A stretch of 64,000 nt of DNA from IMG/VR virus record IMGVR_UViG_3300045988_147321. One strand, 5' to 3'. This DNA is from a virus (taxonomy: Duplodnaviria; Heunggongvirae; Uroviricota; Caudoviricetes). Positions within the stretch are counted from its first letter, which is position 1; every line of letters begins with the position of its first letter. A program made the translations under genes and the position numbers. The notes under the pieces were generated by a model. The model ran no database searches and was not told the DNA's origin. It saw only the letters and a program-made list of their open reading frames with translations. Below are positions 11,965 through 56,354 of this stretch, piece by piece.

Positions 11965-12278
11965 GTATTTTTAAGTCACGAATGCTATCTTTTCGCATCA
12001 TATTGACCTTTTAATCGTTCAGGCTTATAGTTCCGCCGTCGTAGCAAATTCTGCGACCAGGTTTGACAGCCTGAATGATTGTGCGGACAACCGCAGATTT
12101 CCGATATTGCGGTATTTTTGTGTCCGTTAAACCGCGTTACGCCCAAATTATGGTGGGGCGTGATGGGGAGGCTTCGGCCTGCTGGTTTCACAATCGCCAG
12201 TCTGTCAACCCTGTCACGTCCTGCCACCTGTTTGACAGCGGGTAGCAGGTTGTTAAACCTGATTGTGAGGCCGTAACT

Positions 12279-12500
12279 ATGGTTAATGCCAATCCTTGCG
12301 CACGCCAAGAATTCATCTGGCGTTTCTATTCCTGTAAAAAACACCACTATCACTTCGTTATCGCAGCAACAGAAGACGAAGCACGCTCTCAATTGCCTGA
12401 CGGCCCCTGCATTTTTACTGCCCGTTTTTCAACTAACTCGCGCAATCCACTTAGTTACTGGAGCCTCCCCTTCTCTGCCGACGTTCAGGGGGGTTTATGA
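12279..12500 (+). CDS. icd: Icd-like small protein translationally coupled to ant (ATGA overlap)
   Basis: ORF ends TGA overlapping the ant1 ATG at 12497; true start may be internal. Confidence 0.3.
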   Translation: MVNANPCARQEFIWRFYSCKKHHYHFVIAATEDEARSQLPDGPCIFTARFSTNSRNPLSYWSLPFSADVQGGL

Positions 12501-13540
12501 AAAAACCTCTCGTCACCCGTAATGACATAGCCGAAGCGATCGCCCTGCATACTGCCTGTATGCCGACACGGGAGATCCCCGGCGCAATTGCCAACTATTT
12601 CATGATAACCAGACGTTTTTATACCCGAACAGATAAGGCTGTGATCAACAAGCTACTGATAGCCGAGATCAGGGATTATTTGATTGAACAAGGACGTCTA
12701 CGTTACGCAACAGTGGCAGCAGAAATGAGAAAGGAGGCACATAGAATGACCGGTAATAATTTGAATGTTGAAAAAACAGCACCTGTTACGTCAGCTACGC
12801 CAGCACCAGCCGTGAATATCATCCCCAACACCGGAGACACAATCGACAGCCTGACACTGTTAAAGATGGTCAATGAAGCGCGTAAGTTATGTGGGGAACC
12901 AGAGGTTCGGAACAACAAATTCATCGAAAAAATACTCGACGAATTAGAAGGTGAGGACGGTTACACAAAAAGTGCAACCGTGCCGCCAGGTGGCGGTACG
13001 CCTATGGTTGTCATAACCATGACCTACAAACAAGCCCTGCGAGTCGCCGCACGCGAATCAAAAGCCGTCCGCCGTTCGCTGATCGACAAACTGGAAGAAT
13101 TGCAGCAGGCAAACTCCCCTACCCCATCGATCCCCCAAACATTACCAGAAGCTCTACGCCTGGCTGCCGAGTTAGCAGAACAGAAAATGCAGCTGGAACA
13201 ACAGCTGGTGGCCGCTGCCCCTAAAGTCGATTTTGCCGACCGGGTATCAGTGGCTAATGGAATCCTGATCGGGAACTTTGCAAAGGTCGTTGGACTTAAG
13301 CAAAACGCCCTTTTCTCATGGTTGCGCCAGAATGGCATTCTCATGGCTTTTGGAGCGCGCAAAAACGTACCGCGCCAACAGTACATCAACGCCGGGTATT
13401 TCACGGTGAAAGAAGTGGTGCTGGATGATGAAAATGGCTACCAGATACGGCTGACGCCCCAATTAACGGGTAAAGGCCAGCAGTGGTTAACTCGCAAGCT
13501 ACTTGATGCTGGTTTGTTAAAACCAGTAGCAATAGGTTAA
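12497..13540 (+). CDS. ant1: antirepressor Ant1, 347 aa (KilA-C/ANT C-terminal domain)
   Basis: C-terminal domain shared with the next gene (LPEALRLAAELAEQK ... GKGQQWL); position after the operator and leader. Confidence 0.65.
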   Translation: MKKPLVTRNDIAEAIALHTACMPTREIPGAIANYFMITRRFYTRTDKAVINKLLIAEIRDYLIEQGRLRYATVAAEMRKEAHRMTGNNLNVEKTAPVTSATPAPAVNIIPNTGDTIDSLTLLKMVNEARKLCGEPEVRNNKFIEKILDELEGEDGYTKSATVPPGGGTPMVVITMTYKQALRVAARESKAVRRSLIDKLEELQQANSPTPSIPQTLPEALRLAAELAEQKMQLEQQLVAAAPKVDFADRVSVANGILIGNFAKVVGLKQNALFSWLRQNGILMAFGARKNVPRQQYINAGYFTVKEVVLDDENGYQIRLTPQLTGKGQQWLTRKLLDAGLLKPVAIG

Positions 13541-13704: not shown

Positions 13705-14505
13705 ATGCAACAAACATTCAATGCGGATATGAATATATCAAACCTTCATCAAAATGTCGATCCTTCAACCACTCTGCCTGTTATTTGTGGTGTTGAAATT
13801 ACGACCGACCGCGCTGGCCGTTACAACCTTAATGCTCTACACAGAGCGAGCGGACTCGGTGCCCATAAAGCGCCAGCTCAATGGCTAAGAACGCTGTCAG
13901 CCAAACAGCTCATCGAAGAGCTTGAAAAAGAAACTATGCAGAATTGCATAGTTTCGTTCGAAGGCCGTGGCGGCGGCACTTTTGCCCATGAATTGCTCGC
14001 AGTGGAGTACGCAGGCTGGATTTCTCCCGCGTTTCGGCTGAAGGTAAACCAGACATTTATCGACTATCGAGCCGGAAGATTACAACCTGCTATTCCGAAG
14101 AGCCTCCCAGAAGCTCTCCGTTTGGCTGCTGACCTGGCAGAGCAAAAGCAACGGCTGGAGCAAAAAATGCTGATGGATGCACCTAAAGTCGAATTCGCCG
14201 AACGCGTTGCTACCGCCAGCGGGGTTCTAATCGGCAACTATGCCAAAGTGCTCGGCCTGGGCCAAAACTATCTCTTCACCTGGTTGCGTGATAACGGAAT
14301 TCTGATCGCAACCGGTGAACGCAGGAACGTCCCCAAACAAGAATACATATCCCGTGGGTATTTCACCCTTAAAGAAACCGTGATCGATACAAGCAATGGA
14401 AGCAGGATTTCTTTCACGACTCGTATAACCGGCAAAGGTCAGCAGTGGCTGATGAAGCGATTGCTTGATGCTGGTGTGCTGGTACCTGTCGCGGCAACGC
14501 GCTAA
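13705..14505 (+). CDS. kilA: KilA, 266 aa (KilA-N plus KilA-C/ANT domains)
   Basis: C-terminal ANT domain paralogous to Ant1; size matches P1 KilA as recalled. Confidence 0.65.
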   Translation: MQQTFNADMNISNLHQNVDPSTTLPVICGVEITTDRAGRYNLNALHRASGLGAHKAPAQWLRTLSAKQLIEELEKETMQNCIVSFEGRGGGTFAHELLAVEYAGWISPAFRLKVNQTFIDYRAGRLQPAIPKSLPEALRLAADLAEQKQRLEQKMLMDAPKVEFAERVATASGVLIGNYAKVLGLGQNYLFTWLRDNGILIATGERRNVPKQEYISRGYFTLKETVIDTSNGSRISFTTRITGKGQQWLMKRLLDAGVLVPVAATR

Positions 14506-14534: not shown

Positions 14535-15380
14535 ATGCTGGCTAAAGTCACTTTCCTGAGCTGTATAACGATGAGCGATTTTACTTTTTCTGGCTATGAA
14601 TTGGCCTGCTTTGTAACACACTCCGGTCTATCCCGTAGCGCCGGGCATATCCTGTCGCAATGTGCAAATCTCGCGGCAACAACCAGTGAATACTTCATTC
14701 ACAAGCCTCACCGCCTGATCGCGGCAGAAACTGGTTATAGCCAATCAACCGTCGTTCGTGCATTCCGTGAAGCTGTAAACAAAGGAATTCTGTCTGTAGA
14801 GATTGTTATCGGCGATCACCGTGAACGTCGCGCTAACCTGTACCGGTTTACACCATCCTTTTTGGCCTTCGCACAACAAGCCAAAAATGCGCTGATTGAA
14901 AGCAAATTAAAGATCTCTTCAGCGGCAACCAAGGTTAAAGCTGTTCTCGCTAAGACATTGGCTTTATTTAATTTTTTATCCACACCCCCATGTCAAAATG
15001 ATACCCCCTCCCCCTGTCAGGATGACGTGGCAATAAAGAATAAGAAGTCACAAGTTAAAAAAACAAAAAGATCAGTTTCCGGCGGTGCCGGAACGACCAG
15101 ACTCAAAAAATTGACTTCATGGATCGCTGAGGCAAAAGCAAAGGCTGACAATCTGCGGTTATCCAAAAAACGCGCTCAAAAACATGAGTTCAAGCAGAAA
15201 GTAGAGGCGGCAGCGCGGAAATATGCTTACCTGAAGGACAAGCGTTCTCCTGATATTGGCGGGATATCAAACTTCGATAATCTGCCGCATTGCATGACGG
15301 TAAACGAAGCTCTTAATGCGGTTTTAGCCAAAAATAAAGATAACGAACAATGGGGTATACCGGCAGGATTCAGAGGGTGA
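14535..15380 (+). CDS. repL: RepL lytic replication initiator, 281 aa
   Basis: Position after kilA; size matches P1 RepL as recalled. Confidence 0.6.
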   Translation: MLAKVTFLSCITMSDFTFSGYELACFVTHSGLSRSAGHILSQCANLAATTSEYFIHKPHRLIAAETGYSQSTVVRAFREAVNKGILSVEIVIGDHRERRANLYRFTPSFLAFAQQAKNALIESKLKISSAATKVKAVLAKTLALFNFLSTPPCQNDTPSPCQDDVAIKNKKSQVKKTKRSVSGGAGTTRLKKLTSWIAEAKAKADNLRLSKKRAQKHEFKQKVEAAARKYAYLKDKRSPDIGGISNFDNLPHCMTVNEALNAVLAKNKDNEQWGIPAGFRG

Positions 15381-15430
15381 TAGATTGCTCTAATCTGGAG
15401 TCACCTGGCGTTTTCAGTTTGAGGTCGGAG

Positions 15431-15676
15431 ATGCAATCTGATTTTTTACAGTTAGCGATCGCTTTTGCAGGATATGTTTGTATTGGCTTCTGTGTATACA
15501 TGATCAGCCGAAAAATGCTTGTCGATATCGACCGCAAAGAACGAGCAGAGGAGATCTTAGTATGGATTTTCTTTGGCGCGGTCTGGCCATTAGGGATCAT
15601 GTTTGCTGCAACATTTCTTCTGATGTGGATATTCACCCTTCCAGGTGATTTCTATAGAAAAAAAGCCAGACATTGA
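15431..15676 (+). CDS. small membrane protein, 81 aa from internal ATG
   Basis: ATG at 15431 preceded by GAGGTCGGAG; two hydrophobic helices. Confidence 0.35.
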   Translation: MQSDFLQLAIAFAGYVCIGFCVYMISRKMLVDIDRKERAEEILVWIFFGAVWPLGIMFAATFLLMWIFTLPGDFYRKKARH

Positions 15677-15799
15677 TACAATCGTTGCGGGTGCTTGAGG
15701 CTATCTGCTTCAGGCATTACCCGAAAAGCAGATAGAAGAAAGCCCCAGATAACATTACGCGTCCTGCAAGACGCTTAACATTAATCTGAGGCCATATCT

Positions 15800-16006
15800 A
15801 TGCTTAGCATACGTAGATTAGCCTCTTACCGACCAAAAGGTCAAGGAGAAGCAGGCTATGAAGCAGCAAAAAGCGATGTTAATCGCTCTGATCGTCATCT
15901 GTTTAACCGTCATTGTGACGGCACTGGTAACGAGGAAAGACCTCTGCGAGGTACGAATCCGAACCGGCCAGACGGAGGTCACTGTCTTCACAGCCTACGA
16001 ATCTGA
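15800..16006 (+). CDS. mok-like overlapping reading frame, 68 aa
   Basis: ORF track; overlaps the Hok-like ORF in another frame and starts upstream of it. Confidence 0.35.
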   Translation: MLSIRRLASYRPKGQGEAGYEAAKSDVNRSDRHLFNRHCDGTGNEERPLRGTNPNRPDGGHCLHSLRI

Positions 16007-16013
16007 AAGGTAA
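15858..16013 (+). CDS. hok: Hok/Gef-family type I toxin, 51 aa
   Basis: Manual translation MKQQKAMLIALIVICLTVIVTALVTRKDLCEVRIRTGQTEVTVFTAYESER aligns with R1 Hok (CLT ... TRK-LCE-R-R-G-EV-F-AYES); SD AGGAGAAG 7 nt upstream. Confidence 0.75.
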   Translation: MKQQKAMLIALIVICLTVIVTALVTRKDLCEVRIRTGQTEVTVFTAYESER

Positions 16014-16085
16014 GAGACCTGGCGGGGAGAGATCCTCGCCACTCTTCGTGTGTCAGGTATCCTCAATGCACCCTTTCCTCTCCAA

Positions 16086-16110
16086 ATAAAAAAGCTCCCG
16101 AAGGAGCTTT
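16086..16110 (-). terminator. intrinsic terminator for the minus-strand tail operon
   Basis: AGCTCC-CGAA-GGAGCT stem-loop followed by a U-run on the minus strand, 20 nt after the 16130 stop. Confidence 0.55.
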
Positions 16111-16129
16111 AAAATACAAGGGATGACTC

Positions 16130-16639
16130 TTAATCCCACTCAATCCAGTTGTAGACGATACGAAGTGACGGGCGCACAGCGGCAGTCACATCTTCGGTAC
16201 TAAAGTCGATTGCATCACTGTAGATTTTGCAGTCCAACATTTCAATTGTTGTAGCAGCTTTTGTCACAGCGTTAACCCCGGAAGATTTGGATTCAGGGGT
16301 AGCAGCCATCGTGATATCAACATAGTCCTTCGCCGCAATGCGATCTTTAATGAACTGAAGAATATCGCCTTCGATAGTCTCCACGCACTGGACCTGGATT
16401 TCCCCAGAGTTTCGAATTGGACCGTGCTGGTTGAACTTCACACCATTCGGACCATAGTCCTCCACATCCTCGCGGGTCATTTCAGGAATTTGCGACGTGC
16501 GAACCAGTACGCTGATATCTTCATGGCCTGCAAAAGTGAGCTGGAATTCAGAAGATACCAGTCGTTCGCCTTTGGCCGCGTTGGCAGTATAGCGGCCCTT
16601 AATAAATTTACGGTTTCCCTTAGTGTTATTGTGCCCCAT
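16130..16639 (-). CDS. tail tube-like structural protein, 169 aa
   Basis: Size and position downstream of the sheath gene. Confidence 0.3.
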   Translation of the reverse strand: MGHNNTKGNRKFIKGRYTANAAKGERLVSSEFQLTFAGHEDISVLVRTSQIPEMTREDVEDYGPNGVKFNQHGPIRNSGEIQVQCVETIEGDILQFIKDRIAAKDYVDITMAATPESKSSGVNAVTKAATTIEMLDCKIYSDAIDFSTEDVTAAVRPSLRIVYNWIEWD

Positions 16640-16650
16640 ATAAAATCCTT

Positions 16651-17232
16651 TTACTGGAACGCCCGAACAATATCGGAGCTGTTATATATCGAAGAACCGG
16701 TCAACTGGAGGTTGACGGTGTTTTTCAGGAAATGCCCATTGCTGTCCCTGGGCGCATCGAGATCGAAACTTATGTCCTGGATAGCGACATCAATGATGTT
16801 GATCCGGCGACCAATGTTTAGCGTCACACGCTCCGGGATTCGACCACCAATACTGGCATCTTTAAGTTCCGGGCTAATCATCGCTGACAATGCGGCGATA
16901 GCTCCTGAAACCTCCGTGAATGGGTCAAACAAAGCGATGAAAGTTACTGGCAGCGTGAAAGTCGGCGGTGTTCCCCCTTCCCAAACCATTAAGCTGTTCC
17001 AACGGGCAACCGACGTTGTTTCAGTACCAACCTGCGCAAAACCACTGAAGGCACCAGCAACAGATCCCATGGACATACCGGTAAACGGCGCTTCCCAATT
17101 CTGGGCCATGTTCATTGCCGCTCCCTGGCTGATATATCCGGTAACCTGGTACTGAGAGTTCGTTAAAGTAACTTTCAGATATGGCGATACACCGTCAGCC
17201 TGGCTGTAAACCCCATAAGGAATAGGTGCCAT
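16651..17232 (-). CDS. virion structural protein, 193 aa
   Basis: Position in the sheath operon. Confidence 0.3.
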   Translation of the reverse strand: MAPIPYGVYSQADGVSPYLKVTLTNSQYQVTGYISQGAAMNMAQNWEAPFTGMSMGSVAGAFSGFAQVGTETTSVARWNSLMVWEGGTPPTFTLPVTFIALFDPFTEVSGAIAALSAMISPELKDASIGGRIPERVTLNIGRRINIIDVAIQDISFDLDAPRDSNGHFLKNTVNLQLTGSSIYNSSDIVRAFQ

Positions 17233-17267
17233 TCAAGTTAAAGGCCGGAGTTCTCCGGCCTCCTCCT

Positions 17268-18083
17268 TTAGCCAAGGCGCTTACGGCGCAGTTTCATTGA
17301 CTTTTTGCGGGCAAGTTTTGCCGCGCCGGTCTGGGCTTTTCGACGCGCTTTTTTCAGCGCCGATTTTTGAGCCGCAGTCAGACGTTTTTTACGCAGGCGT
17401 TTACGGATGAGTTTGATCTCACCGTTACGAACAACCTTCTTAAATGCTTCAGTCAGCATTTCATCAGAAGTGCCAGCAACAACAAACGCCGCTTCCAGTT
17501 CGTCGCGGTCGTCGCTATCTAAACCAGCGATAGAGGCACCAACATCAGCAGCTGCGTCGTCGTCTTCATCGTCAGCCAGTGCTTCGATCAGGTCATCATC
17601 TACACCGCATGCTGCGAGGAAGTCAGCAACATTTGCCCATGCTTCGTTATAGGCATCGTCCTGTTCTTCTGTAACTTCGGAGTCGTCGTCATCAGAGATA
17701 CCAGCGATAGCCTGAACGAAACCATCAAGGGAGTCGAAAGTCAGATCACCGCTATCAGCCCAGGCGAAAACGGCGTCGGCCGCATCACTCAACGCATTCT
17801 GCATAGCACTTCGATTTGCAGCTTCCAGAATCATCTGGTGCGCCTGTTCGACGGTCCATTCTTTACCGTCTTTCCCTTCCAGGATTTGCTCAGGAGCCGG
17901 GGCAGATGGAACGTTATCGTTAGTCTGTGCCGCCGGTTCCGGATTATTATTAATAACCGGATCTGTTGGCGGTTCGGCGCTTGCTCGGGCAGACTCCATC
18001 AGCTGCACAGGATCAGAGTTCAAAGCGAAACGGGACAGTCCATTCCCCAAAAATGCCCCGGATTGAAAAAAGTTTTTGCTCAT
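17268..18083 (-). CDS. acidic protein with Lys/Arg-rich C-terminal tail, 271 aa
   Basis: Composition read from the ORF; between sheath and tube-like genes. Confidence 0.3.
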   Translation of the reverse strand: MSKNFFQSGAFLGNGLSRFALNSDPVQLMESARASAEPPTDPVINNNPEPAAQTNDNVPSAPAPEQILEGKDGKEWTVEQAHQMILEAANRSAMQNALSDAADAVFAWADSGDLTFDSLDGFVQAIAGISDDDDSEVTEEQDDAYNEAWANVADFLAACGVDDDLIEALADDEDDDAAADVGASIAGLDSDDRDELEAAFVVAGTSDEMLTEAFKKVVRNGEIKLIRKRLRKKRLTAAQKSALKKARRKAQTGAAKLARKKSMKLRRKRLG

Positions 18084-55752: not shown

Positions 55753-55974
55753 ATGCAATCCATTAACTTCCGTACCGCGCGTGGCAACCTTTCTGAAGTG
55801 CTCAACAATGTTGAAGCCGGGGAAGAGGTTGAAATCACCCGCAGAGGCCGTGAGCCAGCAGTAATTGTCAGCAAGGCTACTTTCGAAGCCTACAAAAAAG
55901 CGGCGCTGGATGCTGAATTTGCATCCCTGTTTGACACCCTGGACTCCACCAACAAGGAACTGGTTAACCGATAA
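55753..55974 (+). CDS. phd: Phd antitoxin, 73 aa
   Basis: Sequence [49 protein letters not shown] matches P1 Phd as recalled. Confidence 0.9.
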
Positions 55975-56354
55975 TGAGGCATATATCACCGGAAGAACTT
56001 ATTGCGCTTCATGATGCGAATATAAGCCGCTACGGCGGCCTGCCTGGCATGTCAGATCCGGGCAGGGCAGAGGCCATTATCGGGAGAGTTCAGGCCAGAG
56101 TTGCCTACGAAGAGATCACCGACCTTTTCGAAGTCTCCGCCACCTACCTGGTGGCTACAGCGAGAGGGCATATATTCAATGATGCCAATAAGCGTACCGC
56201 GCTAAACAGCGCGCTGCTATTTCTACGCCGTAACGGGGTGCAGGTATTTGATTCACCTGAACTGGCAGACCTTACTGTAGGCGCTGCGACTGGCGAGATA
56301 TCTGTATCTTCTGTCGCCGACACGTTACGTAGATTGTATGGTTCTGCGGAGTAG
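55974..56354 (+). CDS. doc: Doc toxin (Fic-family kinase), 126 aa
   Basis: Fic-like motif [11 protein letters not shown]; TAATG coupling to phd. Confidence 0.9.

Follow-up and report, generated by a model that had tools for sequence, protein, structure and literature searches.

A predicted hok/mok/sok locus of the HokD/HokW subtype as a probable second addiction module beside phd-doc in a P1-like phage-plasmid

The stretch of DNA under study (64,000 nucleotides, hereafter the window, to which positions refer unless stated otherwise) is that of a P1-like phage-plasmid, with the C4 antisense RNA and its targets, kilA, repL, bplB, a tail sheath gene and phd-doc. Between repL and bplB we have identified what is very probably a hok/mok/sok locus, a complete type I toxin-antitoxin system of the HokD/HokW subtype, which would have been recombined into the rlfA-rlfB-pmgF region of the P1-like genome and would constitute a second addiction module beside phd-doc. 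Judged from the nucleotide sequence, every sequence-level defining feature of a hok/mok/sok locus is present in the window. Indeed, the RNA-controlled, type I design that a first-pass annotation of the same DNA had proposed for the locus is borne out by a leader recognized by Rfam, by the overlap of mok and hok and by a predicted Sok gene on the opposite strand.

The Hok peptide and the overlapping mok frame

The first-pass annotation had placed a toxin of 51 residues at positions 15858-16013 (+), and the translation of this interval, MKQQKAMLIALIVICLTVIVTALVTRKDLCEVRIRTGQTEVTVFTAYESER followed by a stop codon, reproduces the proposed peptide exactly. As had been supposed, the gene is missing from the initial ORF track on account of its length, since a minimum of 60 codons applied there, and the Shine-Dalgarno (SD) sequence that had been described for it is found as AAGGAG at 15843-15848, 9 nt upstream of the ATG. 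We have carried out the profile comparison by which membership of the Hok/Gef family was to be checked and observed that the peptide matches Pfam HOK_GEF (PF01848) over positions 1-42 of the 42 of the profile, with 78.7 bits (E=2.4e-22) against a gathering score of 22, as well as phrog_251 ('MokW-like host killing') with E=4.9e-32. The peptide combines an N-terminal transmembrane (TM) segment with the C-terminal motif TRK-LCE...G..EV..F..YE and two cysteines, and in a five-sequence alignment it keeps all 17 invariant columns, including C15, T25 R26 K27, L29 C30 E31, G37, E40 V41, F44 and Y47 E48. The match of 15858-16013 to Hok/Gef lies far beyond chance. A single RF01794 match and a single tblastn match were obtained in the window, which holds no second hok copy or other type I locus by these searches.

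The likeness to the Hok of plasmid R1, which had been noted for this peptide along its whole length, is correct in respect to the family and misleading in respect to the subtype, the peptide being 96% identical to K-12 HokD, 92% to HokW and 82% to HokC, versus 42% to R1 Hok, and hence of the HokD/HokW type. Among the NCBIfam Hok models, the peptide scores below the curated cut-offs of NF007279 (Hok subfamily, 49.5 versus 73) and NF007290 (HokA, 38.1 versus 89), and the HokD model is absent among its matches. In many RefSeq plasmids PGAP labels identical DNA as 'type I toxin-antitoxin system toxin HokD', a name that results from the 96% peptide identity to K-12 HokD and that was presumably given through another rule than these models; one Punavirus P1 record names the gene MokW. 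The K-12 hokD gene (relF, Qin prophage) is also homologous to the window in its 3' region, including the fbi element described below. However, it has no leader, mok or sok, the relBE operon lies upstream of it and RF01794 does not match it, whereas the copy in the window comes with the full regulatory apparatus.

A distinct reading frame of 68 residues at 15800-16006 (+), present in the ORF list, overlaps hok and corresponds to mok, as inferred from its match to phrog_37205 (E=8.3e-21) and from the alignment of its ATG (15800-15802) with the annotated mokC ATG, which is conserved in 33 of the 36 leaders aligned. The frame is preceded by an SD sequence, GAGG, at 15788-15791. The overlapping mok/hok arrangement that had been claimed for the locus is therefore present.

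The leader, the Sok gene and the ends of the hok mRNA

The leader of hok is matched by Rfam model RF01794 at 15689-15863, on the strand of hok (+), with 114.9 bits (E=9.4e-27; gathering score 59) and over the full model (1-157). The meaning of the matched strand was calibrated on K-12, where within 16300-17500 the model matches the strand of hokC, and the annotated sokC is located inside the match on the opposite strand. The idea that a plus-strand match to a 'sok' model reflects a strand error was rejected on the basis of this calibration. RF01794, named 'sok antitoxin', models the leader of the sense hok mRNA, and strand calls made from it are easily misread.

Position 1 of the Rfam model falls on G15689, which is the predicted 5' end of the hok mRNA, and together with the homology to lambdoid loci (15677-16073) this delimits a conserved core of the mRNA at 15689-16073 (+), which closes with fbi. 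A promoter scan returned a candidate hok promoter at 15655-15682 (+), composed of TAGAAA, 16 nt and TG-n-TACAAT, thus an extended -10 promoter. Its -10 hexamer (TACAAT, 15677-15682; extended -10 at 15674-15682) lies 7 nt ahead of G15689 and aligns with TAGAAT/TATAAT of the lambdoid and K-12 hokC loci. The TG of this extended -10 belongs at the same time to the TGA stop codon (15674-15676) of an upstream ORF of 81 residues.

The 10-bp inverted repeat that had been noted in the leader exists, although its position needs to be shifted by one base, from 15700-15734 to 15701-15735 (+): its arms are CTATCTGCTT at 15701-15710 and AAGCAGATAG at 15726-15735, and they form the first consensus helix of the Rfam model. 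This hairpin is retained in the RNAalifold consensus of the 36 leaders. From the same MAFFT alignment the 5' helix was recovered and the hairpin targeted by Sok was not, because an indel of 18-20 nt breaks the alignment at that point, and folds of the individual sequences were used in its place for the Sok-target hairpin.

The antisense gene was mapped by alignment to the reference loci (R1-type hok/sok; K-12 hokC/mokC/sokC, for which the Sok RNA is annotated; K-12 hokD; and three loci of lambdoid origin), in which all expected parts of the locus are in register, the ends of the annotated K-12 sokC being transferred to the window. The predicted Sok RNA spans 15808-15732 (-), comprises ~77 nt in which a single-stranded 5' tail is followed by a long hairpin and GGGGCUUUCUUCUAU at the 3' end, and is complementary to both the SD sequence (15788-15791) and the AUG (15800-15802) of mok. 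Its predicted promoter, at 15815-15844 (-), consists of a -35 TTGACC (15844-15839), 18 nt and a -10 TAATCT (15820-15815) and is supported by conservation in the family. The simple promoter scan did not report this promoter, since TAATCT fits only three of the six consensus bases, and it was placed through its homology to sokC and to the -10 of sokW: the TAATCT of the window aligns with the TAACCT that was mutated in the promoter-less sokW mutant (Takada et al. 2021, PMC8621323). The nine oligonucleotides of that study, primers and probes, map exactly onto the Stx2-phage copy in our set (L008). For the antisense RNA from the minus strand, which had been anticipated around 15780-15870, a better position is ~15808-15732 with the promoter at 15844-15815, as indicated by the sokC alignment and the sokW -10.

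Folding of 15728-15808 (-) yields -34.4 kcal/mol (z -5.7), and the segment is more stable when read as antisense than as sense in all 40 unique members of the family (mean -25.4 versus -14.7 kcal/mol), a signature of selection acting on the antisense RNA that would be expected if G-U pairs are selected on it. A promoter, a 5' tail, a hairpin, a U-rich 3' tail and the complementarity to the mok SD and AUG, all of which define a Sok gene, are found here at the sequence level.

The two ends of the mRNA core are complementary to each other. In the minimum free energy fold of 15689-16080 (-154.7 kcal/mol; z -9.3 relative to shuffled sequences), the 5' end at 15689-15700 (+; tac, GGGUGCUUGAGG, conserved in the family) pairs with 16061-16073 (+; fbi, CCUCAAUGCACCC), with U16067 bulged. 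In silico, the pairing also holds in a longer transcript that reaches the P1 hairpin downstream, and when the last ~30-40 nt, which contain fbi, are removed the 5' end refolds as a local hairpin. Such a refolding after 3' trimming is the behaviour of the tac/fbi switch of R1 hok mRNA (cited in PMC8621323). Moreover, tac and fbi covary, with compensatory changes between genera, among 42 unique hok loci taken from one genome per species: the pair reads GGGUGC/GCACCC in Escherichia and in the window and GGGCGC/GCGCCC in Photorhabdus, and next to it stand GAGG/CCUC there, versus GAGA/UCUC in Kluyvera and GAAG/CUUC in Citrobacter.

The stem-loop that had been reported downstream of hok at 16093-16109 is also present, one or two bases away, at 16091-16110, but it does not belong to the hok module. 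It is a hairpin of the P1 backbone with an 8-bp stem, AAAGCTCC-cgaa-GGAGCTTT, identical in canonical P1, with which homology resumes at 16088. It makes a good terminator for bplB on the minus strand and a weak one, without a T run, for hok on the plus strand. The terminator that follows fbi in lambdoid loci (CCCGCTTCGGCGGGTTTTT) is missing, the P1 hairpin with no plus-strand T run standing in its place. In the absence of the native terminator, the true 3' end of the full-length hok mRNA is uncertain.

Among the characterized loci, a close relative of the copy of the window is hokW-sokW of Sakai prophage 5 (Sp5), an Stx2 phage of E. coli O157:H7, for which toxin and antitoxin activity have been shown experimentally (Takada et al. 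2021, PMC8621323). Besides a 51-residue peptide with 92% identity, the two share 87.6% DNA identity over 15677-16073, the leader, a Sok hairpin extended by 18 nt, the positions of the Sok -35 and -10, the ATG of mok and the tac/fbi pair. They differ in that hokW-sokW is located in an integrated lambdoid prophage, in contrast to the P1-like plasmid prophage of the window, and in that the -35 region upstream and the terminator downstream derive from other DNA. Further differences are the C-terminus of the toxin (...AVFVDYESEK in HokW, ...TVFTAYESER here) and the Sok promoter spacer, of 17 nt versus 18 nt. K-12 hokC/mokC/sokC (gef) encodes the 82% identical peptide and the annotated coordinates of sokC and mokC map cleanly onto the window, whereas its Sok hairpin is 18 nt shorter, IS186 disrupts it downstream and it has no fbi. 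R1 hok/sok (parB), the prototype of this textbook type I family, of which an R1-type locus matches RF01794 with 87.2 bits, has in common with the window the overlap of mok and hok, an antisense RNA directed against the mok start and the tac-fbi pairing; it differs in the peptide (42% identity), in the leader length and in its tac/fbi pair, GGCGC/GCGCC versus GGGUGC/GCACCC.

The elements described above are evident in the sequence, and the behaviour that follows is that of the hok/sok family. A constitutive promoter would produce a stable hok mRNA starting at about G15689, and in the full-length molecule tac would pair with fbi (16061-16073), leaving the mRNA locked, neither translated nor bound by Sok. 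Slow trimming from the 3' end would remove fbi and allow the 5' end to refold locally, after which ribosomes on mok (15800-16006) could make the start of hok accessible. As long as a cell keeps the plasmid, the short-lived Sok (~15808-15732, -) would pair across the mok SD and AUG and the duplex would be degraded; by blocking the translation of mok, Sok would also block that of hok. Upon loss of the plasmid prophage Sok would decay first, and Hok, with its 51 residues and single TM helix, would depolarize the inner membrane and kill the cell. With such a mechanism the locus would be this replicon's second addiction module and would work independently of phd-doc, and in our analysis this appears to be its most likely role.

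The cassette beside repL and its possible roles

The position that had been claimed for the locus, beside the lytic replicon of a replicon carrying phd-doc, agrees with our mapping, repL being found directly upstream at 14535-15380 and phd-doc at 55753-56351. The immunity region further upstream includes the P1 immunity RNA C4 at 12146-12231 and its a1/b1 targets at 12025-12077 (together the block 12025-12231). In the same region an ORF of 347 residues with a KilAC/Ant domain (12497-13540, +) lies upstream of kilA (13705-14505) and is a second antirepressor-like gene. Three tRNA genes are found elsewhere in the window (32778-32850, 32856-32928 and 34559-34631).

Comparison by blastn with canonical P1 (NC_005856) evidences that homology stops at 15394 (P1 51585) and resumes at 16088 (P1 53412), so that between repL and bplB a cassette of 693 bp (15395-16087), containing the 81-residue ORF and hok/sok, takes the place of 1826 bp of P1 with the genes rlfA, rlfB and pmgF. 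The canonical region (variable region 5; PMC9603915, PMC6906374) occupies the same repL-bplB position and its flanks are equal to the base. The cassette has two parts. The hok locus proper, at 15677-16073, is 88-91% identical to loci of lambdoid prophages (Rac, Stx2 phages, Tritos). The other gene, at 15431-15676 (+), encodes a protein of 81 residues with two TM segments which matches phrog_3772 end to end (E=6.2e-54), is annotated as a hypothetical protein in CP057976 and has been seen only in P1-like phages; its copy in SJ46 is 44% identical and mosaic. An arrival of this ORF together with hok from lambdoid phages was considered and rejected, as the lambdoid matches are confined to 15677-16073 and the ORF itself is restricted to P1-like phages.

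At its left end, the cassette junction falls inside the C1 operator Orlf, just behind repL, of which operator a remnant persists at 15384-15400 (+): the ATTGCTCTAAT core is kept and the last 6 bp are replaced. C1 might thus control the downstream ORF and read-through into hok. A weak terminator-like site at 15633-15648 is the sole such site between Orlf/repL and hok.

These features bear on a different role for the same module, in the lytic cycle. On induction Sok would fall, Hok would depolarize the membrane, and lysis and phage release would be advanced; we regard such a selected role as possible, in a tentative manner. In a P1-type phage, depolarization would release the SAR-type endolysin Lyz. 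The location of the cassette directly downstream of repL and the retained core of the C1 operator, with only the weak site at 15633-15648 in between, are consistent with this, and read-through from the C1-controlled kilA-repL through the 81-residue ORF could disturb the convergent Sok promoter. The best-studied close relative, hokW-sokW, has in fact been associated with the release of phage and not with maintenance: in Sp5, whose locus has the 87.6% DNA and 92% peptide identity to the window given above, sokW RNA was gone after mitomycin C, the appearance of HokW was RecA-dependent and phage yield was halved in the absence of the locus (Takada et al. 2021, PMC8621323). However, this effect in Sp5 is two-fold only, and the locus in the window has a promoter of its own and all parts of a self-contained post-segregational killer. 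The roles in the lytic cycle and in addiction are compatible and not mutually exclusive. A more specific arrangement, in which the cassette is wired to the lytic switch of P1 such that read-through on induction lowers Sok, Hok triggers the SAR endolysin and the timing of lysis is thereby set, appears quite unlikely; the conserved 81-residue membrane protein could be a partner in such wiring. If true, this arrangement would account for the disappearance of sokW that accompanies induction of Sp5 and is so far unexplained.

Defence genes are frequent in the variable regions of phage-plasmids. In an abortive infection or exclusion role, an incoming lytic phage would shut down host transcription, Sok synthesis would stop and Hok would kill the infected lysogen ahead of maturation of the invader; we consider this role unlikely. 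Consistent with such a role, R1 hok/sok on a high-copy plasmid reduced the plating efficiency of T4 by 42% and its plaque size by ~85% (cited in PMC8621323); these effects are however modest and were obtained at high copy number, whereas P1-type prophages are of low copy number. In addition, none of the defence models of PADLOC-DB matched Hok, Mok or the 81-residue ORF.

Distribution among P1-like phage-plasmids and other genomes

A stretch of 1101 bp spanning the cassette is covered in full by six phage records and by at least 206 plasmids of PLSDB, most of them with at least 99% identity, and the cassette is an already known, ordinary element that is annotated in hundreds of public plasmids. 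The substitution of rlfA-rlfB-pmgF was noted by Venturini et al. (2019) as 'two ORFs including a toxin', and the repL-bplB site corresponds to variable region 5 of Zhang et al. (2022; PMC9603915). A full-text literature search for hok in conjunction with P1-like phages or phage-plasmids returned matches to other plasmids and no dedicated study. As the complete canonical rlfA-rlfB-pmgF module is found in 99 full-length PLSDB records, versus at least 206 with the cassette, the arrangement of reference P1 is the minority form in this collection. Two killing modules that are independent of each other, hok/sok and phd-doc, are present together in many natural P1-like phage-plasmids, vehicles of ESBL and mcr genes, and this is relevant to attempts at curing them.

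Two sister phages have retained only a remnant of the hok leader. RCS47 (FO818745, 54973-61309) and SJ46 (KU760857) keep the 3' part of the 81-residue ORF and the hok leader up to about window position 15820, and ~760 bp with a 597-bp ORF on the minus strand stand in place of hok; in RCS47, ISEc46 is inserted 3' of repL. Given that the hok ORF is absent from both, hok is dispensable.

The same remnants, together with the loss of the native terminator in the window, are compatible with the locus being a neutral, silent or decaying passenger that recombination brought in from a lambdoid prophage. Inactivation is in fact widespread among chromosomal hok loci, as exemplified in K-12 by hokC, which has IS186 at its 3' end, and by hokD, devoid of the whole leader. 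In the window, however, every element is intact, including the complementarity of tac and fbi, with the right junction just after fbi, and PLSDB has about two records with the cassette for each one with canonical rlfA-rlfB-pmgF, all of which makes a passenger very unlikely. Exclusion and neutral passage are thus less likely roles, as PADLOC yields no match and the locus is intact, the preferred reading being that of a second addiction module alongside phd-doc.

Outside P1-like phages, some genomes have hok loci in tandem (an Enterobacteriaceae MAG, Photorhabdus temperata and Enterobacillus), with two leader matches ~530-630 bp apart in a locus of 1.5 kb, and Photorhabdus species hold many hok copies. 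Hok loci identical or nearly identical to those of enterobacteria were also retrieved from assemblies under the names of Veillonella (on a MAG scaffold of 22.9 kb), Acinetobacter idrijaensis (275 bp), Xanthomonas pisi (431 bp) and Streptomyces, Ferruginibacter and Oscillibacter (4-5 kb); these off-taxon occurrences are probably the result of contamination or mis-binning.
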